Source: Candidatus Moraniibacteriota bacterium
GTDB taxonomy: Bacteria; Patescibacteriota; Minisyncoccia; Moranbacterales; UBA2206
Direction: 5' to 3'
DNA length: 64,000 nt
Assembly: GCA_049297495.1 (NCBI GenBank)
Contig: JBAQUL010000005.1
Coordinates: forward strand, 3,868-67,867
Shown: piece after piece, positions 33,471 through 64,000 of the stretch
Numbering within the stretch: position 1 is the stretch's first letter
Layout of the letters: every line of letters starts with the position of its first letter
Notes under the pieces: generated by a model
What the model was told of the DNA's origin: nothing
The model's database searches: none
The model's input: the letters and a program-made list of their open reading frames with translations, nothing else
Position numbers and translations under genes: made by a program

Positions 33471-33983
33471 TTATTTAATCGTTAAAACAACAGGGAAATT
33501 AATCATCCTTCTTTTCGCATCAAGCTTTGTCTCCCCTGCAAGGACAGTTGAAAAATAGTCATCCCCCTTAAAGCTCAAAATTTGCTTTGCCACCGTGTCA
33601 TAACTGTCAGCAAAGCAATCAATCTTAATTATCTTGGCCGCTTCATCATAGGTATAGGATTCAAGATATACGCCATCAATCATCACACTTTCGATATTTT
33701 CCAGATCCCTCCCATTATCCCGTTCCATTGCAAGAAGCTCATTTGAAATCGTCAATCTATTTTGAAAATCCAAAACTTTTTTGGAATCGCCAATGGTAAA
33801 CATATTAAATTTAGCCGCATACTCTTCTTTAGCAGTCGCTAAATCGGTCCCCAGCTTATTCCCATAAAAAATCATTCCTCCATAAATCAGCAAGACAACA
33901 AAGAATATCACTAAGAGAACAGTAGTGCCTGTTCCAAGCATTTTCGTATTTTCTCTGTCTGTAACTAAATTTATATTTGCCAT
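33471..33983 (-). CDS. pilN: PilN-like pilus assembly protein
   Basis: 170 aa; single TM segment plus a periplasmic domain. Confidence 0.6.
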   Translation of the reverse strand: MANINLVTDRENTKMLGTGTTVLLVIFFVVLLIYGGMIFYGNKLGTDLATAKEEYAAKFNMFTIGDSKKVLDFQNRLTISNELLAMERDNGRDLENIESVMIDGVYLESYTYDEAAKIIKIDCFADSYDTVAKQILSFKGDDYFSTVLAGETKLDAKRRMINFPVVLTIK

Positions 33984-34072: not shown

Positions 34073-35209
34073 CTATTTTTTATTTAAATTATCTTTCAAA
34101 TACTCGTCCACACCCTTCAATGCCAATCCAACCGCAATATTGAGATTATTTTGGATATCCGCAATGGTTGATTTTAACCGACTATCATAGCCGATTCGTG
34201 CAAAAGGATTGCCAATTGTTGTTTTTATCTTCAGCTTATTGGAAAAATAATCTGCAATGCCTGTCAATTTTGAAGTTCCGCCAGAAAGGATAATTTCCTC
34301 AATTTTATTCCGCTCACCATCCTTGCAATAAGCCCGAATCATTCGTTCTACCTCTCCCGTGATCAGTTCGAGTGTGAAAAAACTAATTGCCGATTCAGTT
34401 TCAAAAAAATTCTTACCAGAAATTTTGAGCGCCTCTGCTCTTTCCATGTCAATTCCCATTGCCTTTGCTATCGTCTTAGTCATTTCGATTCCACCCGCAT
34501 CAATATTTCGATTAATTCTGATTACCCCTTTTTCAACCAAGATGATATTGCAAACTCGCGCGCCAATATCCACAATAACGAAGCTACCTGTGTCATTACC
34601 CACTAGCGAGCGCACGACTGAAAAAGTTTCGATATCAATCGACTTCAAATCCAAGCCAGAAAGCTTGATCAGATTTTCATATTTCAAAACCTTTTTTCGT
34701 GAAGCAGCCACAAGTAAAACCTTAACCCGCACCCCGGAATCAGACTCCTTGACATCTCCACCAGCATCACCCGAAACCGGACGCTCTCTAATCAAAGACG
34801 CGGAATGGGTCTCTCTTTCGACAACCTCCCAACTAATTACCACTTCATCCAGTGAGGTTGGGATATATTTATGCGCCTCAAACTTAATTGCTTGCTCCAT
34901 GTCGCTATCAGCCATTTCAGGAAAATCAATGAGCGTTATGAGTCCTCCAAAAGCCGGCAAAGAAACATAGGCATCTCGCCCAGAAAACTTAGCCTTTTTA
35001 ATGACTCTTTTTAGGCATTGTGGCAGGATAACTTGAAAATATTCAACATTTTCATCTCCTTTTCCAGAATTGCTTCCATCCAGTGACATCCAGGCATAAT
35101 TAGAAAGCATCGGCCTTCCATCTACGACAGTAAGTTCAACCACCTTAATAGCAGCTGACCCAATATCAACACCCACAAATACATTTTTTTTGAAACTAAA
35201 ATCAAACAT
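34073..35209 (-). CDS. pilM: PilM, actin-like ATPase of the pilus alignment complex
   Basis: 378 aa; N-terminal VGVDIGSAAIKVV phosphate-1 motif. Confidence 0.8.
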   Translation of the reverse strand: MFDFSFKKNVFVGVDIGSAAIKVVELTVVDGRPMLSNYAWMSLDGSNSGKGDENVEYFQVILPQCLKRVIKKAKFSGRDAYVSLPAFGGLITLIDFPEMADSDMEQAIKFEAHKYIPTSLDEVVISWEVVERETHSASLIRERPVSGDAGGDVKESDSGVRVKVLLVAASRKKVLKYENLIKLSGLDLKSIDIETFSVVRSLVGNDTGSFVIVDIGARVCNIILVEKGVIRINRNIDAGGIEMTKTIAKAMGIDMERAEALKISGKNFFETESAISFFTLELITGEVERMIRAYCKDGERNKIEEIILSGGTSKLTGIADYFSNKLKIKTTIGNPFARIGYDSRLKSTIADIQNNLNIAVGLALKGVDEYLKDNLNKK

Positions 35210-35371: not shown

Positions 35372-35809
35372 CTATTTCTCTTGTACTTGAACTTTTGTTA
35401 CGGAAATTTCTGTCGCATTTTTCGTGGTCTTATCGTAAGTCACTTTGACAGAATCCCCCACCTTGAGATCAGACAATTGAGCAGTTCCCAAGCTTTTTCC
35501 ATCAAGACTAACATTTAGCACAGAGATTGAACTGCTCACGTTGACGGATACGGTTTCTCTCATCTGCCTTATGCTCAAAGTTTTTTCATCAATCGTACTA
35601 ATACTACCCATAATGCTCACGGTGTCGTCCTGTTTCACACTTTCCGCAGCTTGTTTTGATGAAGCAGTAACTTCTTTTTTTTCAGTAATCGTTTTTTGAG
35701 AAGGAACCGTTTTTTTATTCTTCTCATTGCTACTTCTGACTACCACAAAAAGTCCAACCAAAAGTACGAAAAGCGCAAAGCCTAAGATGAGAATTTTTTT
35801 TCTGTCCAT
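35372..35809 (-). CDS. small membrane-anchored hypothetical protein
   Basis: 145 aa; N-terminal TM segment and a Ser/Thr/Lys-rich ectodomain. Confidence 0.45.
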   Translation of the reverse strand: MDRKKILILGFALFVLLVGLFVVVRSSNEKNKKTVPSQKTITEKKEVTASSKQAAESVKQDDTVSIMGSISTIDEKTLSIRQMRETVSVNVSSSISVLNVSLDGKSLGTAQLSDLKVGDSVKVTYDKTTKNATEISVTKVQVQEK

Positions 35810-35833: not shown

Positions 35834-38800
35834 TTAATGAGAAATCTCCTGCCAGCCTCCTGAATTACAAGGACAATAAATCGTTCCCGTGCAAGAAGTT
35901 GCGAGACATGGTGGAACACCACATCCAGGTGGAGCAACAGGAAGACATTCTTCATTTTGAACTCCGCAAACACCAGGAGTGCAAGTGGTCGGGTAGTAAC
36001 ATTGAGGAGTCATTGAGCAAGAATAATATTCACAAATTCCGCTTGCACCAGTGCAAGCACCAAAAGTTGCTTTGTTTGTCCATGGTTGCAAAGAGCTAAA
36101 ACCCGTCTCTTGAGTTCCTGGGCATTTTGTTGTTCCTGCTGGTGGAGTGACTGGATTACAACCAAATGTTCCAGCTGGAGTATAATATTCACAAATTCCG
36201 CTCACTCCCGTGCAAGCGGCAAGAGTTCCTTTGGGGGTCCATGGTTGAGCAGAACTAAAGCCTGCTTCTCGAGTTCCAGGACATTTTAGCGTTCCGACTG
36301 GTGGAGTGACTGGATTACAGCCGAATGTTCCACTAGGGATGTAATACTCGCACATTCCAAGCACCCCGGTGCAAGCAGCAAGAGTTCCCCGATTTGTCCA
36401 GGACTGAGGAGAAATAAATCCCGATTCTCTGGTTCCTGGACACTTCATTGTTCCGGTAGGTTGAGTTGTCGGCATGCAAGTGTACGAAGTCGTAGGAACG
36501 CAATGGCAACCATCACAACTTGTTCCCGATGGACAAGGCGTTCCACCACTAAATACCGTACTACATTCACAATCATCATTAACTAACACACTAGCAGAGC
36601 AAGGGGTACCTCTTGTTGCTCCCATGTATGGAGTGAATGTGCAGGTTTCCGTTCCAGTTTGTGAGGCAGTAAAATCAAATGGATAACCAGTAATATTAGA
36701 CAATCCGTAATCACCTTCTGGAATTGTTGCACCGATTCCAGAGCAAGTACCAAGCATCTTATCCGCATTGGAAGGAATCCATGTGAGCCTGGAAGTTCCA
36801 GGAGCGGTTAAACTCGTTGGTGAGAAATTTGCAACACAAGAAGGACTAGCGCAATCTATGGTTGTACTACAAGTCTTATTAGCGCCACCATTCAATCCTA
36901 AACATGTCCATCCCCACCATGTGCCAGAATATACCGTCGGCGCTCCTTGTAATGTACCCAGGGTGCAAAGATTACTAGTTGGCGCTAAACAGGAAATTCC
37001 TCCATTCGAAGAACCACAGACTGCATCAGCCCTCACGGAAACTGTTGCTTCGCAAGTAGCGCCTGGAGTTGCTCCATTGTACGGAGTAAAAGTACATACC
37101 TCTGTTCCAGTTTGGTCTACGGTAAAAGGAATCGACCCGGAACCACTGGCAGGATTAGCGACATTCATCGCAGGACTAATCGGCATTGGACCTGTGCAAG
37201 ACACTGTCATTGAATCACCGATGGAATCCCATTCAAGGACAGAACTAGCAGGAGTAGCTGATGTGGTAGTTATATTAGAAGGAGAGAACGAAGCATGACA
37301 TGAAGCTGGCTGGCAACTCTTAGTAGCAGAGCAACTCACGCTACCGCCACCATTAGCCCCCGCACAAGTCCAAAACCATGGACCAGAGCCAGTAACCGTA
37401 GAAGCGGTGCTTGATGAATCACAAAGATTAGCAGTCGGCTGTGTGCATGGGGATGTTCCATTAACAATGCCACAAACCCCTCGTGGCCTCACCAGTACAC
37501 TGGCGGAACAAGGAGTTCCGGCAGTTGCACCAATATATGGCGTGAAAGTACAAGTTTCCGTCCCACTATCCGTCGCGACAAAAGGAAAGGGAAAATTACT
37601 ATAAGACAGACCATAATCAGCCGCTGGAATCGCGCTCCCAATACCAGAACACGCGCCAATTGTCCTGTCCGCGTTGGAAGAATTCCAGGTAAGATATACC
37701 GTATCAGGAGCTTGAATGTCTGTGTCAGAAAATGAAACAGTACACGTAGGAGTGGGAATTACCGCGCTGACTACCGCAGAAGCATAACAAGCCGCGCCGG
37801 CCGTTGAACCATTATATGGAATAAACGTGCAACGAACAGTCCCTGTTTGATTCAAATAAATACCAAAGTTAGTGTAGCTGGCAGCGACATTGGGACCGTC
37901 TATGCTTGGCGAAAGTCCGCTGCAAAAAAGCATTCCATGTGTTGAATCATTCGTTGACCAAGTCAAAGGTCCCCAGCTATTAACATTATAGGAGCTAGCA
38001 CTAAAATGAATTTCACAAGTAGGATTGGAGGGAGGAGCAACCGTGTAATAAATATCGCCAGTCGCTAAATCAAAATTGCCACCACCAGATGTTGTGCCAG
38101 AGCAATTAGCGGCAACACCCCCAGAGCCTTCTCCAGTTATACAAGCCTTGAGAGAAATGACACCACTTGACGATGGCGCGTTACCAGCACTCCAAGAACC
38201 AAAATTGCTAACAGTACAACCGTTTTCAGCAGTGAATGCGCTATTGCCCTTCCAGCCAAAATCAGACCAGCTACCCGATGTGTTCGTTGCAGCTAATAGT
38301 GTAGTATTCCCACCAGAATAATTAACGCAACCAGTGAGGGCTGCACTTCCGTCATATGTCACGGATATCGCCTCTCCTGGGATATAAGTTCCTTTATTTA
38401 AATTCACAGAATAACTAAAAGCTCCCCAACTATTAAATGGCCTAGAAAGTGTAAGAGCCTCCACGCTTTGCAATCTCCAACCAAACAAAGCCCCAAACAA
38501 AAGCAAAAGCAATAACAAATTTTCAGTTTTGTTTTTCTTGTAAGAAAAAAGTGTTTTAACAACAATGGCAATCACCAAAAATAACAGGATTATGGATACT
38601 ATCAACAATACTGCTTTCTTGATATTATTTGGACTACTTTTTTGAGTTTCGCCTTCGCTGATTTTATCTTTTTGAAAATGCAAGTCTCTTTCCGCCAAGA
38701 CTTTACCTTGTTCATTTTTGAGGGTTATTTTAACATTCGGACTAGAGCAATCAATGTTGGATTTAAGCTCAAATTTAGCTATGTTTGAATTTTGATCCAA

Positions 38801-39928
38801 GGCTTGTCCCTGAATTTGCATGCAGAGTTGATTGGCTTGATTAGCTATTACCAAATCAGCTGTTACTTTTTTCCCAGCTGCATTGCCGATGTGCGAATCA
38901 TTGGAACCATCCACCAAGCCAGACCACAACAAAGTAACATTAATCATTTCGCCTTTTTGATAACTAATTTTATCCAGATCTAGTTTTTGAATCGTGGCAC
39001 TTTCGCCGGAAACAACATAGCGCAAAATTACTGGACGAGCGACAACTGCCAGGGCATTGCTTTTCAAAAAAGTAACTCTCGCTTCGTATGTCTGAGGTGA
39101 AGCGGGCTTATTAATCGTCAGATCGATAAATTTTTTCTCTCCTGGTTGGAGAGCTAGCTCCGCCCCTCGCTGGTCTTTGTCAGCCGAACTACCATAGAGA
39201 GAATGTTTGAAAGTGCTCAATAGAGGATAAACCGAAACAGATTCCTTGAAATGACTGGTAACTTCGCAGCTAAAAATCAAGCCTTCTTCTGGCTTAAGCG
39301 ATACCCCTTGAGGCAATGAATAAACCTTACCATTCCCATCTCCCTCGATTTTTAATCCGCAAGCATCGGTATTGATTTCCAGGTACTCACCAGAACCACT
39401 AAGCGCTATAGGCTTTTCTAATTTTAAAACAGCTAGCGGCAGGCCACTTTCATTTTTGGCTACTAGCCACAACTCAAAATCACCAGAGAGATAACTTGGA
39501 GCCTGGTAAGAAAAAACTTTTTGAGTAGAACTATTTCCCTCAATTGAAAGCACATCGGCGGAATACACTCTCTCGTCATACAACGTCTCATCCTTAATCA
39601 ATTGCACACCATAACGAATGCCGGCTTCGCTTTTGGAATAATTATTTTCCAAGCGGAAATAAAGATCTAAATTATTATTTTCTTGTTTTAAAAGAAGGGG
39701 GTCGCGAAAATTGATATCAGCAACAACATCCATCTGTTCTGACGCGATCGCCCCTCCTGGCTCGCGCTGTATTTCCAGAGCACTATCAGTGGGAGTGTTC
39801 GTTGAAGATTCCGCGGCGGCGACTGATTGGCCAAAGAAAATAAAAGATAACATGCACGCCATTACCAGGCCCTCATTTAATTTTTTTTTCATCTTTTTGT
39901 TTTGTAAGAAGTTGCCCCTCAACTTCAT
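35834..39928 (-). CDS. giant Cys-rich surface protein (1364 aa) with an N-terminal signal peptide, a mid-protein membrane hairpin and a C-terminal repeat array
   Basis: Signal peptide (MKKKLNEGLVMACMLSFIFFGQSVAAA). TM helix around aa 432-455, then a second hydrophobic segment (LLLLLLLFGALFGW) 14 aa later. C-terminal modules: CTFTPY(I/N/M)GAT.GT.C.A(S/T)V.V three times, CPGT(R/Q)E.GF.S.Q.WT.K.T..ACTG..G.CEYY three times, and ANLC...GPW.WTC.G.NGG motifs. Confidence 0.7.
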   Translation of the reverse strand: MKLRGNFLQNKKMKKKLNEGLVMACMLSFIFFGQSVAAAESSTNTPTDSALEIQREPGGAIASEQMDVVADINFRDPLLLKQENNNLDLYFRLENNYSKSEAGIRYGVQLIKDETLYDERVYSADVLSIEGNSSTQKVFSYQAPSYLSGDFELWLVAKNESGLPLAVLKLEKPIALSGSGEYLEINTDACGLKIEGDGNGKVYSLPQGVSLKPEEGLIFSCEVTSHFKESVSVYPLLSTFKHSLYGSSADKDQRGAELALQPGEKKFIDLTINKPASPQTYEARVTFLKSNALAVVARPVILRYVVSGESATIQKLDLDKISYQKGEMINVTLLWSGLVDGSNDSHIGNAAGKKVTADLVIANQANQLCMQIQGQALDQNSNIAKFELKSNIDCSSPNVKITLKNEQGKVLAERDLHFQKDKISEGETQKSSPNNIKKAVLLIVSIILLFLVIAIVVKTLFSYKKNKTENLLLLLLLFGALFGWRLQSVEALTLSRPFNSWGAFSYSVNLNKGTYIPGEAISVTYDGSAALTGCVNYSGGNTTLLAATNTSGSWSDFGWKGNSAFTAENGCTVSNFGSWSAGNAPSSSGVISLKACITGEGSGGVAANCSGTTSGGGNFDLATGDIYYTVAPPSNPTCEIHFSASSYNVNSWGPLTWSTNDSTHGMLFCSGLSPSIDGPNVAASYTNFGIYLNQTGTVRCTFIPYNGSTAGAACYASAVVSAVIPTPTCTVSFSDTDIQAPDTVYLTWNSSNADRTIGACSGIGSAIPAADYGLSYSNFPFPFVATDSGTETCTFTPYIGATAGTPCSASVLVRPRGVCGIVNGTSPCTQPTANLCDSSSTASTVTGSGPWFWTCAGANGGGSVSCSATKSCQPASCHASFSPSNITTTSATPASSVLEWDSIGDSMTVSCTGPMPISPAMNVANPASGSGSIPFTVDQTGTEVCTFTPYNGATPGATCEATVSVRADAVCGSSNGGISCLAPTSNLCTLGTLQGAPTVYSGTWWGWTCLGLNGGANKTCSTTIDCASPSCVANFSPTSLTAPGTSRLTWIPSNADKMLGTCSGIGATIPEGDYGLSNITGYPFDFTASQTGTETCTFTPYMGATRGTPCSASVLVNDDCECSTVFSGGTPCPSGTSCDGCHCVPTTSYTCMPTTQPTGTMKCPGTRESGFISPQSWTNRGTLAACTGVLGMCEYYIPSGTFGCNPVTPPVGTLKCPGTREAGFSSAQPWTPKGTLAACTGVSGICEYYTPAGTFGCNPVTPPAGTTKCPGTQETGFSSLQPWTNKATFGACTGASGICEYYSCSMTPQCYYPTTCTPGVCGVQNEECLPVAPPGCGVPPCLATSCTGTIYCPCNSGGWQEISH

Positions 39929-40123: not shown

Positions 40124-42613
40124 ATGACCAGAAAAAAAATCGACAAAAGAATGCCTCACTTGGAACCGAGCTTTCATGATATTTTGATTTGCAAAAAAAA
40201 TGATTGTCGCCCATTTATTGAAATACTAATCGAAGAACCAGAAAATATTTCACATCATAATCTGGGGACGCTGATGGGAATTTTCCAGATCGACGACAGA
40301 AGCGAGGATTCCTCCTATGTTGTGAATTACCTAATTTCCATCATTAAGAAAGAATATTTTTCCCGCGCCAATCGTGGTCCCGTTGAAAACTTTGAATCAG
40401 CTCTACACAAGGCCAACCTTGCCCTCGCCAAACTTGCCACGCATGAAAATATTGGCTGGATTGGGAGCATCAATGCTATTTGCGCTGTAATTGAAAAAAA
40501 TAATATTCTCCTCTCTCAAACCGGAAATGCCTCAGCTTTTCTTTTGCGCGGAAACACCTTCACCGAAATTACTGAAATTCAAGATGGAACTATCGATTCC
40601 AACCCCCTAAAAACGTTTCAGGACGTCATTTCAGGAAAAATCGAAAAAAATGACAAGCTACTACTCACTACGAAAGAAATTTTTGACATTTTTTCCCTGG
40701 AAGAAATCAAAAAAAGCGCACTCAAATTTTCACGTGAAAATTTCATCCAATTCCTAAATACCGCACTCGTCAACGAACTTGACCAGGTAGCCTCTCTCGT
40801 TATCGACATAGACGAAAAAACTGATGAGTTCCCCGAAACCCCACCAACTCCAAGAAGAGAAGATGTGAATGTTTTTAGTCAAACTGCCTTTCAAAAAGAA
40901 CTTTCTCCTAAAATATTAGAGAAAGAAAGGGCTAAGGAAGATATCTTGAGAAAAGAGCGGCAAGAAATAATCCAAGAGCTCAAAGATGAGGCAAAAGATT
41001 TTGTCGATAAAAAAACTGGACATATCTACATAAAAGAAGCTCACAATGCGCCCAAAGAAGCTCAGATTGAAAAAATTGAATTCGACCCACTCCCCTTTTT
41101 CAAGGAAAAATTCTCTGGCTTAAGACACTCTAGTGCAAAACTGCTCAAAAATGCAACAAGCATACTAAAAGATCAATCTGCTTCACTTTGGGAGAAAAGC
41201 CGCGCTAAAATCTCTCAAATTAAAGTTAAAAAAACTCCTCCAGAAATTGAGTTTTTAGACCGAAAGACTGAAAAAATCGATGAACCAAACACAGTCTTCG
41301 CTCAGACTGAGCCAGAAATCACCCCACTAGAAAGATTAAGCCATGCATATTCCAAACTAGAAATCAAAGCAAGAACCGAATCACTTGTAAAAAAAATCAA
41401 GCCAGGATTTGAATGGTTAGAAGAAAAAACTGCTGATGGATTAATTCTTATCCTGAGAAAGCCCACCAATCTCACCATACAATTGATTGAATCGCTGAAA
41501 AACAAATGGCGCAACCACAAAATTAAAAACCAAACCGAAATAAAGACCCAAGGATACCCCTGGGAAAACTCACCGGTCTCGTCTGACATAGGCCTCCAAA
41601 AAATCGCGACAACACCTCTGCAAAAAACCACAAATCTCGGTCAATTCATCGAGCCCAAGAAAATCCTGCCAAATTTTTCTCGTCTGAAACAAATCTCCAA
41701 AAGCCTTGATCGAAAACAAAAGCTATCAGCTTTGGCAGCGTTAGTTCTTCTTTTGGTTGTCCCATATTGGATCGTAAAATTAGAAAACAGAGAAATCGAG
41801 AAAAAACCGGAAATTGTCGAAGAAATCCCCGCAGTCATACTGCCACTGGAAAATGACTTGAACGTCCAACGCATTGAAAAACTAAACGAGATCTACGGCG
41901 GAAGTGTCTCGCGAATCATAAATCTCAACGATAAATTTTTCGCCCAAAAAGACTCCGAGATTATTGAGCTGGAAACGAAGAAAAGTTTTCCCCTTTCTCC
42001 AGATTTCCAAAATCCGGAATTATCGCTCGGAATGGACGATTTGAATTTAATTTTCATTGTTAAGAACAATAAAATCATATCCCTCGCGCCTACTTCAGGA
42101 AAATTCCAAGCCAATTCCATTGCGTTTCCCGAAAAAGCTAAAATAGCTGATGCCAAGACCTATCTTACCTATCTTTATTTGCTCGATGGAGCAAATAACC
42201 AGATCTATCGCTACCCAAGAGCTGAAGGCGGATTTGGCGAAAAAAACACCTGGCTAAAAGAACCTCTAGATCTATCCAATGCCAAAAGCCTCGCCATTAA
42301 TGAAAATATCTTCATTATAAATGGCCAAAGTATCATCAAATTATTTCGCGGAAAGAATCAGCCCTACATGCTGGAAAAAACCGCAACGCCCATCTCGCCA
42401 GATAAACTCAGTACCCAAAATGCTAGCACCAACCTATACATCCTAGATAAAACTAACTCGAGAATAATAAAACTGGACGGTGAGGGAAAAATTCTGGCCC
42501 AATACTATAATGCGGAAATCACCAACGCAACTGATTTTTCCGTCAGTGAAGAAAATAGCTTGGTTTATATCTCAGATACAAATGGAGTAAAAAGCTTCGC
42601 AATGAATCAATAG
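40124..42613 (+). CDS. large hypothetical protein with a mid-protein TM segment; the N-terminal domain weakly resembles PP2C/SpoIIE
   Basis: 829 aa; coiled-coil region, a TM helix around aa 535 (LSALAALVLLLVVPYWIV), and a C-terminal beta-rich domain. Confidence 0.45.
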   Translation: MTRKKIDKRMPHLEPSFHDILICKKNDCRPFIEILIEEPENISHHNLGTLMGIFQIDDRSEDSSYVVNYLISIIKKEYFSRANRGPVENFESALHKANLALAKLATHENIGWIGSINAICAVIEKNNILLSQTGNASAFLLRGNTFTEITEIQDGTIDSNPLKTFQDVISGKIEKNDKLLLTTKEIFDIFSLEEIKKSALKFSRENFIQFLNTALVNELDQVASLVIDIDEKTDEFPETPPTPRREDVNVFSQTAFQKELSPKILEKERAKEDILRKERQEIIQELKDEAKDFVDKKTGHIYIKEAHNAPKEAQIEKIEFDPLPFFKEKFSGLRHSSAKLLKNATSILKDQSASLWEKSRAKISQIKVKKTPPEIEFLDRKTEKIDEPNTVFAQTEPEITPLERLSHAYSKLEIKARTESLVKKIKPGFEWLEEKTADGLILILRKPTNLTIQLIESLKNKWRNHKIKNQTEIKTQGYPWENSPVSSDIGLQKIATTPLQKTTNLGQFIEPKKILPNFSRLKQISKSLDRKQKLSALAALVLLLVVPYWIVKLENREIEKKPEIVEEIPAVILPLENDLNVQRIEKLNEIYGGSVSRIINLNDKFFAQKDSEIIELETKKSFPLSPDFQNPELSLGMDDLNLIFIVKNNKIISLAPTSGKFQANSIAFPEKAKIADAKTYLTYLYLLDGANNQIYRYPRAEGGFGEKNTWLKEPLDLSNAKSLAINENIFIINGQSIIKLFRGKNQPYMLEKTATPISPDKLSTQNASTNLYILDKTNSRIIKLDGEGKILAQYYNAEITNATDFSVSEENSLVYISDTNGVKSFAMNQ

Positions 42614-42630
42614 CTAGTATCTTTTAAAAA

Positions 42631-42666
42631 ACAGGAACGGAGCTCATGGCTCGTTCCTGTTTTTTC
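42631..42666 (+). terminator. Rho-independent terminator
   Basis: ACAGGAACGGAGCTCATGGCTCGTTCCTGT followed by TTTTTT, a perfect 11-bp stem. Confidence 0.8.
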
Positions 42667-42685
42667 ATTAGTTTTATTTTTATCT

Positions 42686-42826
42686 CACGACTTACGCGTT
42701 TGTCAAAGAATTATTCGCACGCACAGCCTATTTAGCTGAAAAAGCCTTTGGTAAACCAGCAGTAAATAAACCAAAATGAGGAAGCGTCGCTTTCAAGAAT
42801 AATTATTTGGCAAACACGTAAGTCCT
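42686..42826. mobile_element. MITE-like element copy 1 (about 140 bp with roughly 22-bp terminal inverted repeats)
   Basis: 5' CGACTTACGCGTTTGTCAAAG and 3' TTTGGCAAACACGTAAGTCCT are inverted repeats. Same family as copies at 49543-49690 and 59411-59557. Confidence 0.55.
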
Positions 42827-42861
42827 ATATCTATAAATAACCGACGATAAATAAGCATTTT

Positions 42862-45321
42862 CTAAAATCTCGTCCGGGCGATGATTTCCTGATTGACGAC
42901 ATGTCGATCTCGGCCAAAAGTCAGACGAGACAGCTCCTTGATTGCATTAGCCACTTCCTGATCGCCTCTGGTCGGAGGAAAGCCCTGGATATTGAAAGGT
43001 TTGGTCAGTACGCCGTCAATTAGAACTTTCGCAAACCCTTTGTGATTATCCACATTCACTAAATCATTCTTTGAAAAAGTCGGCGCCACCTGTTTCTCCA
43101 GAAATTCCGCGTCTTCCGGACCGACGCGATAAAGAATCATAGAGCCAATATTGCCAAACACGGCCTTTGAAATCTCTTCCTTGAGTTGAGCGATAAATTG
43201 ATGAGCGATATTGAGACAGAGTCGATATTTTCTCGCTTCGCTGAGAATTTGGGCGATAGAATTGGTTGTCACATTTTGAAACTCATCAAGATAGAGATAA
43301 AAATCCACGCGATCATTCTCTGGAATATTAGTACGCGCAAGCGCTGACATCAAAATTTTTCCCACAATCACCATGCCCAAAAGTCGCGCGTTAATTTCCC
43401 CAATCTTTCCCTTGGAAAGAGCCACGAGTAGGATTTTCTTATTATCCATGATATCGCGAAAATTAATCGTGCTTTTTTGTTGAGAGATAATCGGACGCAT
43501 CATGTCATTGGAAATAAACGGAGTCAGTTTGGAGGTGATATAGGGCACCATATTGGCCAGTGCCGCTTCACCTCCGGCTTTTTCCGCTTCTTTGGTCCAA
43601 AAATCTATCACTGTCTGATTGGTACATTTGGAAAGTTTCATGGCGCGAAAATCCTCATCCGCCATCACCTTGGAAATTTCCATTAAAGTTGATCCTGAAT
43701 CCGGGTCGCTCATCACGAGAAACATCGCATTACGCATATATTGCTCAAACATCGGTCCACCAGTCGCTTTGAGATCATAGAGTTGATCAAAAATGCCAAT
43801 CATTTCGTTGATCACAAAGGTCATCTGCTCCGGATAGGCCGGATCATATTCCAGCATATTAAGCCCAAATGGCCGCTCAACATCCGATGGGTCAAATACA
43901 ACCACATCTTGTGCCCGCTCCTTAGGAATGCAGGCCAAAATATCCTCAATCGCATCGCCATGCGGATCAATAAAGCAAAAGCCCCGCCCTTCCTTGGCAT
44001 CCTGTTTGGCCATTTCTTGCAAGATAGTCGTCTTTCCTGTTCCAGTTTGACCAATCGCATAGAGATGCCGCCTGCGATCACTCTCAGTTAAACGAATATC
44101 CGTCTTTGCTCCACGATATTCATTGAAGCCGATAAGCACGCCTTCCGTAGGAATCCCGACCGGTGGTGGGGCAGCGTTCGCTTTGAGCCATTTAATTTTT
44201 GGTGCTTCGGTGGTGGAGATGGGAATGTGAAAAATACTGGAAATCTCTTCCACACCAAGAATCATTTTTTCTTCCGATTTAAAATTACGGAAAATAAAAT
44301 CAAAAGCAATCACTTTTTTATTTTTTCTTTGCACTTGAAAACAGTTTATATCCGCATTTTCATATTGCGCGAAAGCATTCTCAATATGCGCTAAGATTTC
44401 CTGGGCCCGCTCACTTGTCGCAGCTGACGTTACCAAGCGAATATTGGTTTCAAATCCAGTCTTTGAGGCTTTTTTTTCAATCCCCTTCACCAACTCTTGT
44501 TCTTCTGGAGTAAGCTGCACAGTTTTTTTGTCCCCCGACAGTGGATCATCTTTTTTCCCTGGAGTGATAATGGATAGCGCCGCAGAACCAAGTTCACTTC
44601 CCACTTTTGCCATAAAAGATTTATCCACGTCACGTAGTCTTTTCCCTTGCTGCATCTCGTGAGCGATGCGCCGCCCTTCCGCCCGCCAAGCTGTCCCAGC
44701 TGGACGCAAGACCAATTGGATAGCTGCTCCCTCGCTTACCGTGTCAAGCTTGCTGAGTGCATTAGCAATAGCATTCAGTGGATCCATTTCTTGATTTTCA
44801 TAGGTACGAATCGGCAAAGCAAATTTATTTTTCAACTTAATAATTGATGCCTCGGTCTTACTCCCAGGAAAGAAAATATTAAAATCGGTTGTCTTTTCCA
44901 AGGATGCATATGGAAAAAAACTATGAATCTGCTTTTCTATATTTTCCCTAAATTTTCTTGGCACCGCAATAAAAAAAACGATTTCCTCATTCTTAGAAGA
45001 ATTGGCAATCTCCAATGAGATTGCGGGTGAGCCATACAGTAATTTTTTGAAAAAACTCCGAGTATCTCTGATTGAGGAAAAAGCCGTGAGCATTTGCTCC
45101 ATCGCTCCAATCTCGCCCTTCCAATTCTCTCCTTCCTTAGTTTTCTCCTCCTCACTCTTATTGATTTTTGAAACGCGAATCACATCAAGATCCAAATTCA
45201 TTGATTGATTAACCTGAGCGCGAAAACCTAAAAAGCTTGACACAACAAGCCAAGCACCACTAAACAAAGTCGCTATTCCTGAGACCAAAAGTACGATATT
45301 AATTAAGCTAGAATAATCCAT
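42862..45321 (-). CDS. TraD/VirD4/TraG-family P-loop ATPase (type IV coupling-protein-like) with an N-terminal TM segment
   Basis: 819 aa; Walker A AIGQTGTGKTT, FIDPHGDA, Walker B YLYLDEFQNV, and the ...NIAHQF motif. Confidence 0.55.
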   Translation of the reverse strand: MDYSSLINIVLLVSGIATLFSGAWLVVSSFLGFRAQVNQSMNLDLDVIRVSKINKSEEEKTKEGENWKGEIGAMEQMLTAFSSIRDTRSFFKKLLYGSPAISLEIANSSKNEEIVFFIAVPRKFRENIEKQIHSFFPYASLEKTTDFNIFFPGSKTEASIIKLKNKFALPIRTYENQEMDPLNAIANALSKLDTVSEGAAIQLVLRPAGTAWRAEGRRIAHEMQQGKRLRDVDKSFMAKVGSELGSAALSIITPGKKDDPLSGDKKTVQLTPEEQELVKGIEKKASKTGFETNIRLVTSAATSERAQEILAHIENAFAQYENADINCFQVQRKNKKVIAFDFIFRNFKSEEKMILGVEEISSIFHIPISTTEAPKIKWLKANAAPPPVGIPTEGVLIGFNEYRGAKTDIRLTESDRRRHLYAIGQTGTGKTTILQEMAKQDAKEGRGFCFIDPHGDAIEDILACIPKERAQDVVVFDPSDVERPFGLNMLEYDPAYPEQMTFVINEMIGIFDQLYDLKATGGPMFEQYMRNAMFLVMSDPDSGSTLMEISKVMADEDFRAMKLSKCTNQTVIDFWTKEAEKAGGEAALANMVPYITSKLTPFISNDMMRPIISQQKSTINFRDIMDNKKILLVALSKGKIGEINARLLGMVIVGKILMSALARTNIPENDRVDFYLYLDEFQNVTTNSIAQILSEARKYRLCLNIAHQFIAQLKEEISKAVFGNIGSMILYRVGPEDAEFLEKQVAPTFSKNDLVNVDNHKGFAKVLIDGVLTKPFNIQGFPPTRGDQEVANAIKELSRLTFGRDRHVVNQEIIARTRF

Positions 45322-45490
45322 AATCTTGAACTATGATTTTTATGATTATCAACAAATTTCAAAATCCTAATATCAAATTTCCAATCAAGTCTTAAATTCA
45401 AATGACAAAATAATTTTCTGGCTTATTTTCTTGGATTTTGAATTTTGGTTTTTGTTTGACATTGAAAATTAGAAATTGAAAATTAATCCT

Positions 45491-45931
45491 TCATTCTTCT
45501 GTTATCATTCCCTTCTTTACCAACGCGTCATGCAAATCTGTCGCCAGGAGTCGATCATGCAATTCGTCAAGCAAATAATTATCCTCCATGTGTTGTGCCA
45601 CCTTGACTGCATGCACAACACCCTTCGCCTCAGCCAATTCGACTAATTTTATAATTTTATTTTCATAATCCGTCCCTTCGCCAGCTATTTTGGCGTCCGT
45701 CGAAACATCATTTTGGGCCACAGGATTCGAACTTTTCACCTTGGCAAGAATCTTGGCATAGGTGTCATCACGCTCCACCTTTCCCTCTTTCCTTTCCGGC
45801 GCTTCTGGGGTAGGAATAACTTCTGGGTCATCCTTGGGCGAACTGGACACAACACTCTTTTCACCCTCGGGACCACCTTTTAAGAATTTATTTTTCAAAT
45901 CCAAATCTCCATCTTCAATTGGCTCTAGCAT
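45491..45931 (-). CDS. acidic hypothetical protein
   Basis: 146-aa ORF, D/E-rich. Confidence 0.4.
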   Translation of the reverse strand: MLEPIEDGDLDLKNKFLKGGPEGEKSVVSSSPKDDPEVIPTPEAPERKEGKVERDDTYAKILAKVKSSNPVAQNDVSTDAKIAGEGTDYENKIIKLVELAEAKGVVHAVKVAQHMEDNYLLDELHDRLLATDLHDALVKKGMITEE

Positions 45932-46102
45932 ACGTTTTAGCTTAATTGTTTATACTGGTTTATCAAAAATATCATTATTTACATCATCCCTTTGAAAAAT
46001 ATAGTCAGTAATTTCCATTTTTTATCCAAAACGCACAGCTTCAATTCGAAAATTAAGAAATTTAAGCATTGTTTGGAAATTGGAAATTGGAAATTTCTCC
46101 CC

Positions 46103-46402
46103 CTACTCCACTTTCTTCATTTCTTCTTTGAAATCAGCAATAATCTTTTGCACCATTTCATCATAATTCAATACCTTTTCCTTCAGAAATTCACCGATTT
46201 TCTCTGGTTCGCTTTTTTCATCAACCATCTTCTCATACATCTCACGATCTGCCTCACTCAATCGCTCCATCGTTTCCACAAAGATTCTTTTCAAAAGCAC
46301 TTCCGTCATTTTAATCAGAATCTCATTTTGCTTATCCAGTGGAAGATTGGAAAGCCCCAATTCTTCCATTAGCTCTTTTTGCAATTGATCTTGATCAACC
46401 AT
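46103..46402 (-). CDS. small hypothetical protein
   Basis: 99-aa helical, E/K-rich ORF. Confidence 0.35.
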   Translation of the reverse strand: MVDQDQLQKELMEELGLSNLPLDKQNEILIKMTEVLLKRIFVETMERLSEADREMYEKMVDEKSEPEKIGEFLKEKVLNYDEMVQKIIADFKEEMKKVE

Positions 46403-46484
46403 TTTATTTTTGTTACCGCCAAATAATTCAGCGAGTAAGATTAATTTTTTAAATTGAACTTTTTTTATTTTTTAGCAAAGAAGC

Positions 46485-61720: not shown

Positions 61721-63922
61721 TTACGGGCAATTCTTTGTCCCCTGTCGCCGCTGGCAACCATCAAAACAAACAAGCTCTTTGCAGGTATGCGCAGCGCAAT
61801 CCGGATTATCTGGTTGACAGCTAGTTTTCGTATCTGAAATCACACAATTGCAATTCGTACAGCTTTTTCCTGCTGGACAAAGCTGCTCAATTCCGTCACA
61901 AGTCTCACCAGAATCAATCACGCCATTGCCGCATTTCTCATTTGATTTACACGCATAAATAGCACAACCGCTGCCATCCATTCCGGTTGTTATGATATCC
62001 GCCTCGCCACCTGGACAAAAATTCGCTCCGGGAAAATTATCGCATCCGGAAGTCTGAGCGGCGATTGTCGAAATCGTATCATCCGGATCGCCGTTGGAAA
62101 GCCAAGTAGCAGAAGCGTACCATTGCTTATAGCTGCCAACGTCAAAAACAGAGCCATATTGATATGTAGTCACTGTTCCTGATTCAGGACTGACTATATC
62201 AGGGAAATTGCCACGCAATATTTTCACATATAACCAGCCTCCTTCACTAATCATGGGGCTATAGCTAGATCGCCCTACCGTTATTACTCCTCCGGCATTT
62301 CTCGCATATTGAGTAGCTTCCTTTAATTGAGAAATTGAAGCCCCGCTCGTGGGCATACTATTATAATTTGGAATAGCTGAAATGTCAGGCAACTGACCAA
62401 ATCTTGCTGCAGTGGCAATTTGCGCCTCCCTAGTCATACCCAAAAGATCCAGCGAAGCCCGAACGGCGCCAGCAGGCACATATACCTTGAAACTATCTGA
62501 AATGGTTTTATCAAGAATATTTCTACTCAGACCAAGCTGTCCATTTTCAGGTAAGTTGCAAGATGTTTGTCCATAGCAATAAATCCGGGGGTCATTAATA
62601 TTATATTGCGCCTTATAGCCAATAAAATTGTCATAGCATTTACTCTCCCCGGCATTGCAGTTGATCACACCTTCATTATTGCAAGCTCCTGCGCTACAAA
62701 AATTAATTTTCTGCGGAGTCTGATGATACGATTCATAGCCACTATCATCAACCTTGGTTCGACAACTTGCTGTCGTTCCACTATTTGTTCCTGTGCAAGT
62801 CCAACTCCAAGGCCCCGCTCCCGTAACCGCAGAAGCTGTTCCAGTCGCACAAAGATTAGCAGTTGGAGCAGCCGAAGCCATTTTTCCGGCCGCACTGCCG
62901 CAGACACCATTTATGCCAACGGCACCAGTTGGCTTTTTAACCTCAATTCTAATCAAAGATGGTGTCCCGGGAAGACCATCAGATCTATTAGTCGGATAAA
63001 AACTGCAAACTTCAACGCCTGATACGCCGATATTAAACCAAGCAGGATAACCATCAGTAGCAGTTTTGGCAAAGGGAAATGAACCATTTTGGGCACCATA
63101 CCAATCCGTGCTGCTCAGAAAAAAAAGTGTTCGCGGGATAATCACCGGTCCATCGCAAGCCAAGTCTGTTTTTGAGGCGTCAGTAGAACTCCAAGTAAGC
63201 CAGGAAATATTAGCATCAGTTGGTTGATCTTTAATCGATACCGATTCAACAAGGCCGGGATTAGCTTTAGTAGCTATACCTGAGCAAGCCGCTGTTTTCG
63301 CACCGGGAATCCAGACTGTGCCATTCCAACAAGAATTGCCAAGACAAACCTTTTGATCACAGCCAGGACCAGTTGGAAGAGCTGGAGCAGCCACGCCTTC
63401 GCAAGTTCCATTGCACTCATCTGAGCAAACAGAGCCCATGGGAGTTGTCGTGGCGCAAGAGCAATTAGGCACGCAAGAAGAACTCGACTCATCGGGATCA
63501 CCATCAGAAAGCCAAGTGGCAGAATCATACCAGTTTTTGAAAGTGTCATAATCAGCAACACCACCAGAATTGCTATATAGCCATGGCTTAGAGCCATCGA
63601 AAGATAAAATTTTCACATACAACCAACCACCCTCAGCTAAAGTCGGAAAGTGCTGGTCAGCTGAAACTATCAATGGTTGTTGGCTAGCTCTGACAAACTG
63701 TTGCCCTTCTTTCAGTTCGGGAATAGTGTGTCCAGCTAAGTTTGCGCCAATGCCAGTGGAAAATTCATTCCAGGTAAGGCCTGCGGGCATTTCATATTCT
63801 GGAGGAGAACCAAATTTAGCCACCGCTCCCACCTGGGCATGATTAAAAACTTGAAATGAAACAGGAAAACTCTTTGACCCGGCCGGCACATAGAACTTAA
63901 TTTTATTCCCAACAAAATCCAA
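61721..63922 (-). CDS. Cys-rich secreted-type protein with an internal domain duplication; shares the ANLC..GPW.WTC module with the T4P-associated giants
   Basis: 733 aa; duplicated domain (..GGWLYVKIL..ATWLS(D/N)GDPD..) at aa 1-140 and again at about aa 470-600; ...PTANLCATGTASAVTGAGPWSWTCTGTNSGTTASC...; C-terminal Cys-rich region. No signal peptide at the annotated Met, so the N-terminus may be mis-called. Confidence 0.55.
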   Translation of the reverse strand: MDFVGNKIKFYVPAGSKSFPVSFQVFNHAQVGAVAKFGSPPEYEMPAGLTWNEFSTGIGANLAGHTIPELKEGQQFVRASQQPLIVSADQHFPTLAEGGWLYVKILSFDGSKPWLYSNSGGVADYDTFKNWYDSATWLSDGDPDESSSSCVPNCSCATTTPMGSVCSDECNGTCEGVAAPALPTGPGCDQKVCLGNSCWNGTVWIPGAKTAACSGIATKANPGLVESVSIKDQPTDANISWLTWSSTDASKTDLACDGPVIIPRTLFFLSSTDWYGAQNGSFPFAKTATDGYPAWFNIGVSGVEVCSFYPTNRSDGLPGTPSLIRIEVKKPTGAVGINGVCGSAAGKMASAAPTANLCATGTASAVTGAGPWSWTCTGTNSGTTASCRTKVDDSGYESYHQTPQKINFCSAGACNNEGVINCNAGESKCYDNFIGYKAQYNINDPRIYCYGQTSCNLPENGQLGLSRNILDKTISDSFKVYVPAGAVRASLDLLGMTREAQIATAARFGQLPDISAIPNYNSMPTSGASISQLKEATQYARNAGGVITVGRSSYSPMISEGGWLYVKILRGNFPDIVSPESGTVTTYQYGSVFDVGSYKQWYASATWLSNGDPDDTISTIAAQTSGCDNFPGANFCPGGEADIITTGMDGSGCAIYACKSNEKCGNGVIDSGETCDGIEQLCPAGKSCTNCNCVISDTKTSCQPDNPDCAAHTCKELVCFDGCQRRQGTKNCP

Positions 63923-64000
63923 TGGTGTAAAACTTTCCGGATTACTATGATTAGGATATGAATAATGCCATAAGTAGCCATGGTCACCAGCAAACGTCGT

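Follow-up and report, generated by a model that had tools for sequence, protein, structure and literature searches.

A probable two-part surface-protein precursor with a predicted internal signal peptide in an unannotated family of Parcubacteria

Introduction

How is the second half of a protein exported when its first half already ends in a membrane anchor? This question is raised by a large open reading frame (ORF) of a Candidatus Moraniibacteriota bacterium, found in a stretch of 64,000 nucleotides that was analysed as a whole (the window). A signal peptide and an ectodomain lead there to a transmembrane helix (TM1) and, after a short basic loop, to a second hydrophobic stretch that again looks like a signal and opens a long Cys-rich C-terminal half. 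Substrates of signal peptidase I are defined by the n-h-c build of their signal peptides and by the (-3,-1) rule. Here, we compare the junction among the members of the family and argue that the protein is probably a two-part surface-protein precursor, belonging to a large unannotated family of Parcubacteria (CPR), whose C-terminal half would be re-exported and then probably cleaved off.

Results

The target ORF is one unbroken reading frame, without frameshift, and is a genuine gene, not an artefact. Two ATGs might start it. We prefer the one at M13, because the NCBI model (P0001) begins there and the homologues begin with MKKK...; a strong ribosome-binding site was found at neither ATG. The host of the gene is an ultrasmall (CPR) bacterium. 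A search of Pfam-A gave no family at E <= 0.1, and a search of NCBIfam gave two matches, which cover only the TM region and lie far under the curated cut-offs. An earlier inspection of the letters alone, hereafter the sequence-only reading, had picked out a surface-type ORF of 1364 aa with a signal peptide, and this was borne out: the N-terminal signal peptide (aa 13-39) has a basic n-region, an uncharged hydrophobic run and an A-x-A c-region, and its counterparts across the family show uncharged runs with a median of 21 residues. The expected order of ectodomain and TM helix also held, the ectodomain being of about 400 aa. TM1 reaches a hydropathy of up to 3.6 in the target and is found in every long form of the family, with a median uncharged run of 21 residues.

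Table 1. Features of the target gene, its downstream neighbour and a second module-bearing ORF (window coordinates)
Feature	Position	Strand	Residues	Description
Whole ORF	35834..39928	-	1-1364	1364 aa + stop; probable true start M13 at 39892 (1352 aa)
N-terminal signal peptide	39812..39892	-	13-39	Sec-type; MKKKLNEGLVMACMLSFIFFGQSVAAA, followed by E
N-ectodomain	38618..39811	-	40-437	three tandem beta-sandwich domains; conserved, defines the family
TM1	38558..38614	-	439-457	A439-V457, AVLLIVSIILLFLVIAIVV; stop-transfer anchor of the N-terminal half
Basic loop	38519..38557	-	458-470	K458-N470, 13 aa, KTLFSYKKNKTEN; predicted cytoplasmic
Internal signal peptide, h- and c-regions	38456..38518	-	471-491	LLLLLLLFGALFGW-RLQSVEA; predicted cut between A491 and L492
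Post-signal domain	38024..38455	-	492-635	conserved 8-strand beta-sandwich; near-invariant C534 and N536
Module I copy 1	37763..38023	-	636-722	Ig-like, 4 Cys
Module I copy 2	37484..37750	-	727-815	HMM
Module II copy 1	37307..37483	-	816-874	VCG..NLC..GPWFWTC..NGG..C; BLASTP, HMM
Module I copy 3	37028..37306	-	875-967	HMM
Module II copy 2	36845..37027	-	968-1028	BLASTP, HMM
Module I copy 4	36578..36844	-	1029-1117	HMM
Module III, three copies	36020..36478	-	1151-1203, 1204-1256, 1257-1303	i-E 1e-26 to 1e-35
C-terminal tail	35837..35875	-	1352-1364	CPCNSGGWQEISH; conserved in the target subfamily
Small N-anchored protein	35372..35809	-		145 aa; downstream neighbour, conserved in the Moraniibacteriota subfamily
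5'-truncated large ORF	61721..64000	-		one module I (62981-63208), one module II (62753-62911)

The C-terminal half is Cys-rich and repetitive over some 870 aa, as had been noticed, and 61 of the 65 Cys of the protein lie past aa 491. Its repeats were described earlier as three copies each of two modules. This count has to be revised: HMMs built from the target's own copies (module I of ~90 aa, II of ~59 aa and III of 53 aa, the whole array spanning aa 636-1303) give four copies of module I (i-E of 1e-31 to 1e-38), two of module II and three of module III. The last follows the pattern C.P..P.GT.KCPGT.E.GF...W....ACTG..G.CEYY and is rare in the family (7 of 155 representatives). The end of the chain recurs more widely, since W-x-E occurs within the last 14 aa of 75 of 140 family representatives, typically as NW[KRQ]EV[AST]P-COOH. 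No LPXTG or TM-containing sorting signal was found in the target, which ends in its tail without a hydrophobic segment. The N-ectodomain and the post-signal domain are generic beta-sandwiches, without a diagnostic ligand site. Together with the W-x-E tail they are the conserved units of the family, which the sequence-only reading had overlooked.

The N-domain defines a family that extends across the Parcubacteria and counts 1,790 cluster representatives. Conservation was counted in the best 154 of these, at a pairwise identity of at most 50%. Among them, the succession of TM1, basic loop and second hydrophobic stretch is present in all 139 long forms. It agrees with the TM helix, short gap and second signal-like stretch first seen in the target, where the loop of 13 aa is followed by a stretch of 14 residues (L471-W484) and then by RLQSVEA up to the predicted cut. 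The loop is basic throughout the family: four aligned columns hold K or R in at least 79% of the sequences (three of these in at least 84%), and the net charge, with a median of +4, is +2 or more in 98.6% of the members, for a median length of 7 aa.

We then aligned the junctions of 140 sequences, anchored on the downstream domain and without imposing any cleavage rule. Position -3 is A, V, T or S in 137 of the 140 (91, 35, 7 and 4, respectively; V489 in the target) and position -1 is Ala in 132 and Gly in 4, hence one of the two in 136 (A491 in the target). Upstream, the alignment shows the four K/R-rich columns and a Gly-rich end of the h-region; downstream, Asp at +1 (75 sequences), Thr at +2 (112 sequences) and Phe, Leu or Trp at +3. 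By its sequence, the aligned junction is a canonical signal-peptidase-I site. The folded post-signal domain starts 1-2 residues past the predicted cut, and its first beta-strand is made of positions +1 to +3 (D-T-F), so that the conservation of the junction is partly structural and not driven by the protease. The uncharged run of the internal segment has a family-wide median of 20 residues (interquartile range 18-22), which matches the median of 21 in these proteins' own N-terminal signal peptides. A motif scan, the sole means used, found no signal peptidase gene in the window.

In the target, the internal segment begins at residue 458 and is not N-terminal. It is N-terminal only in relatives in which the two halves are split. 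Short forms, ending right past TM1, make up about 8% of the members, and in the three that were checked at the DNA level (L009, L011 and L012) the loop is where gene 1 ends; a second gene follows, overlapping gene 1 by 4-11 nt. Gene 2 opens with Met, K-rich residues, a hydrophobic core and AxA, e.g. MNLKNFKILLFVVAFLILLPAGSAKA ahead of DSF, and keeps the post-signal domain in two of the three loci (L011, E = 1e-18; L012, E = 3e-6). By its position, the internal segment of the target thus corresponds to a real N-terminal signal peptide, and the natural split versions suggest that no covalent link is needed for the two halves to work. The basic loop is at once the predicted n-region of the internal signal peptide and the break point of the split forms. 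In a neighbour-joining tree, the splits are scattered among fused forms, the 12 short forms requiring no fewer than 11 changes. Fused and split layouts form an evolutionarily interchangeable pair, with the caveat that assembly frameshifts in the A-rich DNA encoding the loop could account for some of the short forms. The sequence-only reading had opposed re-export through a hairpin to the fusion of two genes. Each proposal contained part of the answer: the second stretch of the hairpin corresponds to the signal peptide that opens gene 2 of the split forms.

These results leave two ways of using the second stretch. It might be cut, as we favour, or it might restart export and stay in the membrane as a TM helix, so that two ectodomains would be carried by one TM-loop-TM chain. 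A signal-anchor of this kind could span the membrane, as its uncharged run (a median of 20 that includes the Gly/Ser-rich end) falls just under the median of 21 of TM1, itself of 19-23 residues, and the positive-inside loop suits a stable hairpin. We nevertheless find this outcome doubtful, if clearly worth considering. Signal-anchors have longer h-regions than cleaved signals (PMC2120157), and in the target subfamily the uncharged run has just 13-17 residues, which is short for a stable TM helix. It is not obvious what the near-invariant small residues at -3 and -1 would do in a permanent TM segment. Moreover, gene 2 of the split forms opens with this segment as an ordinary N-terminal signal peptide bearing an AxA site, and the N-terminal half functions there without it.

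The gene immediately precedes, on the same strand, pilM-N-O-B, a response regulator, pilT, pilC and pilin genes, and the adjacency to pilMNOBTC is repeated in the same order in the closest relatives (P0002 and P0003). The protein might then be a component of type IV pili, either a pilus-associated tip adhesin or an assembly factor working with pilMNOBTC. This is improbable. Four neighbouring pilins match Pfam N_methyl whereas the target does not; it lacks a prepilin signal, and both its N-terminus and its internal signal are of the signal peptidase I type. Linkage to pilus genes is absent at P0006, which lies among cell-wall and ribosome genes, at P0013, next to ftsA/ftsZ, and at P0041. At P0009 the sole pilus gene is a PilM-PilN fusion, found upstream of the target homologue at a distance of about 2.5 kb. 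The family extends far beyond the synteny with pil genes. Another neighbour is conserved in the Moraniibacteriota subfamily: in five contexts a gene for 138-177 aa lies directly downstream of the target homologue, and the 145-aa protein of the window is 26-31% identical to the L001 and L003 copies, with the same build of a TM segment and a small beta-domain.

The modules had also been proposed to tie the target to the pilus locus, by way of a NLC..GPWxWTC motif (that of module II) common to two other large proteins. For the ORF at 61721-63922 the motif was confirmed (BLASTP, E = 3e-17; HMM, E = 1e-14), and a single module I is found beside it (E = 3e-5). This ORF runs on to the edge of the window without closing (61724-64000 from stop to stop), hence the 733 aa attributed to it are a truncated length, and its in-window part yielded neither the N-domain nor the post-signal domain. 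The 963-aa protein of the pilus operon (14293-17184) gave no BLASTP match and, for the three modules, no HMM match at E <= 1; the best that hhalign gives is half of a module I over aa 862-900 (E = 0.018, probability 2.6%). The motif is not lineage-specific, as the module II profile also matches Candidatus Peribacteria and a Syntrophobacteraceae protein, and a tie of the domain family to the pilus locus is not supported, given that the 963-aa protein lacks the motif and that only the two closest relatives share the pilus adjacency.

Could the C-terminal half be translated on its own, besides or instead of the full chain, from a start codon in the loop? Gene 2 of the split relatives begins exactly there, and TTG codons occur in the Leu run of the target. 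Yet, the junction has no ATG and no ribosome-binding site, including near 38540, where the sequence-only reading advised looking for them; in or near the loop there is also no GTG and no Shine-Dalgarno-like sequence upstream. Promoter-like sites in the junction region are not commoner than in shuffled sequence. Since the TTG codons fall within the h-region, initiation at one of them would give a product without the basic n-region. Such an internal start is very improbable. Still less credible is an artefact or a non-functional recent fusion, by which a sequencing or assembly frameshift, or else a lost stop codon, would have joined two neighbour genes: some relatives do carry the locus as two genes, which the sequence-only reading would have taken as the sign of such an event, and the A-rich DNA of the loop is prone to indels, but this reading is effectively refuted by the continuous frame, the strongly conserved junction and the fused majority, a layout found in 139 of the 154 diverse representatives, in every Moraniibacteriota homologue from independent assemblies, and down to about 30% identity.

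Discussion

We propose that the precursor is made in two rounds of export. The N-terminal signal peptide would direct the chain to Sec, the three-sandwich N-ectodomain would be exported, and TM1 would halt the transfer. The short Lys/Arg-rich loop would remain in the cytoplasm and, together with the next hydrophobic stretch, form a second, internal signal peptide through which export would resume for the ~870-aa C-terminal half. Signal peptidase I would most likely cleave past A491 (between V-E-A and L-T). Two products would result. The membrane-anchored base would retain the spent signal peptide along with the N-ectodomain, TM1 and the loop, and the free extracellular chain would comprise, in this order, the conserved beta-sandwich, the variable array of disulfide-rich modules and the conserved W-x-E tail. 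Since the layout is conserved and is sometimes encoded by two separate genes, cleavage that yields an anchored base and a variable Cys-rich head is probable. We infer that cleavage takes place and that the free chain is held at the cell surface by binding the base. It would presumably be a variable adhesin or host-recognition head, a role suggested by analogy only, as the conserved domains have no diagnostic ligand site.

One might speculate further that the family is an undescribed display system of the Parcubacteria at large, in which a precursor cut by signal peptidase I gives a conserved three-sandwich base and a detachable head, the latter re-docking via its first domain and/or the N-W-K-E-V-A-P tail while its middle is swapped like a cassette. 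We hold this idea tentatively. Cassette-like exchange of the disulfide-rich middle is suggested by tandem paralogues whose 5' halves are 97% identical and whose 3' halves are unrelated. If true, the system would serve episymbiotic CPR bacteria as a modular device for host recognition, and its proteins would form the first large natural bacterial family with two Sec signal peptides per chain.

Parts of this scheme have precedents. The FbcH protein of Bradyrhizobium japonicum, attributed to Thony-Meyer et al. (1989 and 1991), is reportedly a cytochrome b/c1 precursor encoded by a single ORF, in which an internal signal peptide is said to come after a membrane-embedded N-terminal part and to start export anew for the C-terminal part; a signal peptidase reportedly cuts the precursor into two polypeptides that are both kept in one complex. 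In other bacteria the two parts are separate genes. In the target family, too, the internal signal peptide comes after a stop-transfer TM, and other genomes encode the halves as separate genes. However, FbcH is a respiratory enzyme with a polytopic N-terminal part, whereas the target is a surface protein whose N-terminal part is an exported ectodomain with its own signal peptide; the target chain thus has two signal peptides, unlike FbcH, its cleavage is predicted, and the sequences are unrelated.

The precursor of Clostridioides difficile SlpA is cut by Cwp84 into the HMW and LMW S-layer proteins, which are non-covalently associated. The resemblance lies in a conserved anchoring subunit and a variable exposed subunit from one exported precursor. 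Yet, SlpA is cut by a wall cysteine protease and not at an internal signal peptide, its anchor consists of cell-wall-binding repeats instead of a TM helix, and its chains do associate, whereas for the two chains of the target this is presumed. Literature matches for "internal signal peptide" are of the viral glycoprotein polyprotein kind. The flavivirus prM-E, bunyavirus Gn-Gc and alphavirus E2-6K-E1 polyproteins show the same alternation of ectodomain, TM, loop, internal signal and ectodomain, and are cut at their internal signal peptides by the host signal peptidase into products that often stay associated at the surface. These are substrates of the eukaryotic ER translocon and signal peptidase complex, whereas the target belongs to a bacterial chromosomal family that would use Sec and LepB, and there is no homology between them.

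The hairpin with a positive cytoplasmic loop is also that of the E. coli leader peptidase (Lep; H1-P1-H2-P2) and of the internal signals engineered by the von Heijne laboratory; in the Lep model, as is predicted for the target, the second hydrophobic segment is the internal signal by which a large C-terminal domain is exported, and cleavage of the constructs is set by h-region length and the -3/-1 residues (PMC2120157). In native Lep, however, H2 is uncleaved and the N-terminus has no large ectodomain, the cleaved versions being laboratory constructs. Finally, the CARDB and Ig-like beta-sandwich domains of surface proteins are a further close parallel.

Architecture and extent of the family

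The open reading frame read from the sequence as a giant surface protein is present on the minus strand. The NCBI model of an identical protein (P0001, from Candidatus Moraniibacteriota) and the homologues all begin at M13 (MKKK...), and 1352 aa is therefore a likelier length than 1364 aa. Hydropathy and direct inspection of the sequence give the layout listed in the table, and 61 of the 65 cysteines fall within the last ~870 residues. Scans of this protein, of the 733-aa ORF at 61721-63922 and of the 963-aa pilus-operon protein returned no usable Pfam or NCBIfam match.

Coordinates of the features discussed in the text
Feature	Located in	Position	Strand	Remark
Surface protein	window	35834-39928	-	1364 aa
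N-terminal signal peptide	surface protein	aa 13-39		hydropathy and direct reading
N-ectodomain	surface protein	aa 40-437		~400 aa; hydropathy and direct reading
TM1 (first transmembrane helix)	surface protein	A439-V457		hydropathy and direct reading
Basic loop	surface protein	K458-N470		hydropathy and direct reading
Second hydrophobic stretch	surface protein	L471-W484		then R-L-Q-S-V-E-A491 / L492; hydropathy and direct reading
Post-signal domain	surface protein	aa 492-635
C-terminal tail	window	35837-35875	-
5'-truncated large ORF	window	61721-64000	-	stop-to-stop 61724-64000, 759 codons, no in-frame stop before window edge
963-aa protein	window	14293-17184	-
pilN	window	33471-33983
pilM	window	34073-35209
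829-aa protein	window	40124-42613	+	no family match
VirD4/TraG-like coupling ATPase	window	42862-45321	-	within 40124-49367
960-aa protein	window	46485-49367	-	no family match
PilM-PilN fusion	L003	2806-4428		single 540-aa protein
Tandem paralogue 1	L003	7001-10870
Tandem paralogue 2	L003	11406-14219
Thioredoxin/DsbA-like protein	L003	14335-15480		membrane-anchored; SYCPYG motif

In 13 homologues from independent assemblies (34-100% identity) the same order is kept: signal peptide, N-domain, TM helix, basic loop, second hydrophobic stretch, a small-x-Ala motif and a Cys-rich region. The family is much larger than this. A profile of the N-ectodomain alignment alone, run against 1.84 billion cluster representatives, matched 1,790 proteins at E <= 1e-3 and 942 at E <= 1e-30. 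Among the best 154 representatives of the 1,790, with no pair more than 50% identical, the hairpin of TM1, basic loop and second hydrophobic stretch is found in all 139 long forms. TM1 has a core of ~20 residues in these, and the loop is short (median 7 aa) and positively charged (median net charge +4, at least +2 in 98.6% of members). Where members are named, they belong to Moraniibacteriota, Campbellbacteria and the 'Parcubacteria group', and all are annotated as hypothetical, save one labelled CARDB-domain. A profile search of genome contigs with the N-domain alignment yielded seven loci, all in close Moraniibacteriota, because it depended on exact peptide patterns. In a few members (P0025, P0047, P0131 and P0138) the N-ectodomain begins 210-470 residues into the protein, with extra N-terminal domains ahead of it; P0025 stops after TM1.

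The junction between the two halves

Substrates of signal peptidase I are defined by their n-h-c organisation and by the (-3,-1) rule. We built an alignment of 140 sequences that begins where the N-domain ends, and took the register from conserved flanks and from no cleavage rule. The position of V489 (-3) holds A, V, T or S in 137 sequences, and that of A491 (-1) holds Ala in 132 and Gly in 4. Past the junction, +1 is Asp in 75/140, +2 is Thr in 112/140 and +3 is Phe, Leu or Trp; upstream lie four K/R-rich columns, twelve hydrophobic columns and a Gly-rich boundary. By its sequence, the junction has the n-h-c build and the (-3,-1) pattern of a signal peptidase I substrate. The internal segment has the n-, h- and c-regions of a signal peptide and differs from one in lying far from the N-terminus. 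The predicted cut, between A491 and L492, would leave the N-terminus LTLSRPFNSWGAFSYSVNLNK in this protein and DTF... in relatives.

Split forms

Short forms (414-474 aa) make up about 8% of the representatives and end a few residues past TM1, in a basic tail. We inspected three of them at the DNA level, and in each (L009, L011 and L012) the first gene shares its last 4-11 nt with the gene that follows. The product of this second gene starts at a Met, runs through a K-rich n-region and a hydrophobic core to an AxA site, and continues as Cys-rich sequence; the N-termini, with a slash at the predicted cut, are MKKSLYIFSVISFVFLGIILSFLYSAQDADA/SG, MNLKNFKILLFVVAFLILLPAGSAKA/DSF and ...LNLFSMKQAKA/STY. 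A profile of the post-signal domain of the fused protein matches the second-gene products right after the signal peptide (E = 1e-18 in L011, 3e-6 in L012). By position, then, the internal segment corresponds to a standard N-terminal signal peptide, and each half can function as a polypeptide of its own.

The nearest relative is a fused protein for 11 of the 12 short forms, and a rough neighbour-joining tree requires at least 11 changes from fused to split. Hence, breakage at the loop seems to have happened repeatedly and to be tolerated. The loop is coded by A-rich Lys/Asn codons, and in such DNA out-of-frame stops and ATG codons would arise easily. These scattered variants resemble repeated natural gene-splitting experiments, and they point to the place of the functional boundary.

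Proposed export and processing

Four lines (the junction, the split forms, their repeated origin and the length of the segment) point to the second hydrophobic stretch being a Sec signal peptide. Its uncharged run has a median of 20 residues, against 21 for the N-terminal signal peptides of the same proteins, and is only 13-17 residues in the subfamily of the protein studied here. PMC2120157 describes h-regions as shorter in cleaved signals than in uncleaved signal-anchors. In our data, h-region length separated signal peptide from TM helix in this subfamily, but failed to do so family-wide. The length of the second segment across the family favours the main alternative, a hairpin that stays uncleaved in the membrane. 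Yet such a hairpin fits poorly with the conserved residues at -3 and -1 and with the split forms, and we regard it as possible but doubtful. What the data establish is the layout, how well it is conserved, the signal-like nature of the junction and the equivalence of fused and split versions. Cleavage at the internal signal peptide is in our view the rather probable outcome.

We propose that Sec would export the N-ectodomain, that TM1 would halt transfer and that the basic loop would remain inside the cell. The internal signal peptide would then restart export of the C-terminal half, and signal peptidase I would cut at A491/L492. The products would be an anchored base and a free chain in which a conserved docking domain and a conserved tail enclose a variable Cys-rich array, with the C-terminal half presumably held at the surface through the base. 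A motif scan of the window revealed no signal peptidase I gene or dedicated paralogue. A search at the junction for an internal start or ribosome-binding site, which had been proposed as a check, found no ATG, GTG or Shine-Dalgarno-like sequence there, and promoter-like sites near it are no commoner than in shuffled sequence; translation is thus unlikely to start at the junction. That the fused gene is an artefact, by frameshift or recent fusion, is unlikely too: with 139 of the 154 diverse representatives fused, and every one of these long forms carrying the hairpin, fusion is the normal state of a large family and not a frameshift or recent accident.

Cleavable internal signal peptides are, to our knowledge, very rare among natural bacterial proteins, and the textbook case is the cytochrome b/c1 precursor FbcH. 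The protein described here would be like FbcH of Bradyrhizobium and like viral glycoprotein precursors in being a polyprotein processed by signal peptidase, and like SlpA of C. difficile in giving a two-subunit surface protein from one precursor; it is homologous to none of them, and its own cleavage is predicted. An internal-signal build kept in 139/139 full-length members examined, in a family of ~1,800 clusters, bears on our understanding of protein export. It also has a practical side, as gene callers and topology predictors will mislabel such proteins as plain 'two-TM membrane proteins'. Pfam and NCBIfam contain no model for either conserved domain or for the C-terminal tail, and literature searches returned no description of the family, or of such an architecture in CPR bacteria. 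This is an unannotated and widespread family of CPR surface proteins built around an internal signal peptide.

Conserved and variable parts of the C-terminal half

The ~145 residues past the junction are conserved family-wide (Y.V.L[DN]K..Y.PGE.I..G..C.N), with the Cys present in 129/140 members and the Asn in 125/140. The model of this domain is an eight-strand beta-sandwich (pLDDT 84.4, pTM 0.78). Its first strand begins 1-2 residues past the predicted cut, and the structural matches are generic. The other end is also conserved. A W-x-E lies inside the last 14 residues of 75/140 members, typically as N-W-[K/R/Q]-E-V-[A/S/T]-P-COOH, and many of the remaining tails, read by eye, show aromatic (Y/F) variants. 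Our protein ends in CPCNSGGWQEISH. The tail contains no hydrophobic segment and we know of no sorting signal that it resembles; a role as a tag for docking or sorting is possible.

Between these two ends the sequence is hypervariable across the family. HMMs built from the repeats of our protein find four copies of module I (~90 aa), two of module II (~59 aa) and three of module III (53 aa), where the sequence-only reading had counted two modules with three copies each. Module II bears the NLC...GPWxWTC...GG..C motif, and as claimed this is common to the ORF at 61721-63922 (BLASTP E = 3e-17; module II HMM E = 1e-14), in which the match to module I is weaker (HMM E = 3e-5). The 963-aa pilus-operon protein, to which the motif had also been ascribed, contains none of the three modules: BLASTP and HMMs found no match, and the best hhalign match has E = 0.018 and 2.6% probability. 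Of 155 family representatives, 37 have module II, 24 have module I and 7 have module III. Nor do the modules keep to the lineage. The module II profile was searched against a 5.8-billion-protein database and 433 short candidates were scored, which gives presence outside the lineage and not prevalence; it also matches Candidatus Peribacteria and a Syntrophobacteraceae protein. For this reason the modules appear to be a widely shared pool instead of the lineage-specific family bound to the pilus locus that had been proposed.

The large ORF containing the 733-aa frame is open to the window edge, so that 733 aa is a truncated length. Modules I and II are each present once in it, along with an unrelated ~120-aa segment that was spotted by eye and occurs twice (KF/VYVPAG...EGGWLYVKIL...WY.SATWLS.GDPD). 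GC content is 0.475 at window 36001-38000 and 0.455 at 62001-64000, against ~0.40 elsewhere. These peaks coincide exactly with the Cys/Gly/Thr/Ser/Pro-rich module arrays, and the raised GC seems to reflect the composition of the repeats and not foreign DNA.

One locus in a relative (L003, GCA_021833765.1) holds two tandem paralogues with a small 167-aa gene between them. Their first 1,830 nt, which cover the N-domain, hairpin and post-signal domain, are 97% identical in DNA; the rest is unrelated, which suggests cassette-like replacement or gene conversion of the exposed half. Directly downstream of these Cys-rich paralogues lies a thioredoxin/DsbA-like protein, plausibly a disulfide-forming helper.

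Current work on host recognition and attachment in CPR bacteria centres on type IV pili (PMC12206443). A conserved anchored base paired with an exposed chain that is hypervariable and rich in disulfides is a plausible candidate for host recognition in these ultrasmall, host-dependent bacteria, and the family may act as adhesins or in host recognition.

Genomic context

The gene heads a minus-strand cluster that continues with a 145-aa N-anchored protein, pilM, pilN, pilO, pilB, a response regulator, pilT, pilC and pilins, and farther downstream with a prepilin peptidase, minor pilins and the 963-aa protein. Within the Moraniibacteriota subfamily, the small gene downstream is kept as a partner. 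The supposed tie to the pilus locus does not extend much further: linkage is seen only in the closest relatives and is absent for three other homologues (P0006, P0013 and P0041), and the locus of a fourth (P0009) has a PilM-PilN fusion gene ~2.5 kb upstream and no other pilus gene. A role as a pilus component would suit the neighbourhood of the gene here and in its closest relatives; a Pfam scan found no prepilin signal in the protein, and we consider such a role unlikely. A PilM-PilN fusion is also found in L003, and the window has separate pilM and pilN genes.

The 963-aa protein comes after three N_methyl minor-pilin-like genes. It opens with a pilin-like segment, MKIQKNKRGSFMIGVLIMFLVISAISIAI, but the protein has no Pfam match, and its C-terminal half has Cys-rich repeats of its own (C.YKCAN.YTW.G..C), which weakly match variable regions of other family members (E ~5e-5 to 6e-4 in the 155-protein set). 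The protein is a candidate giant minor pilin or tip adhesin. On the other side of the surface protein gene, the region 40124-49367, with its VirD4/TraG-like coupling ATPase and two large flanking proteins, could be a DNA-transfer or uptake module; the same 829-aa and 819-aa pair lies upstream of the homologue in two relatives' loci (L007 and L008).
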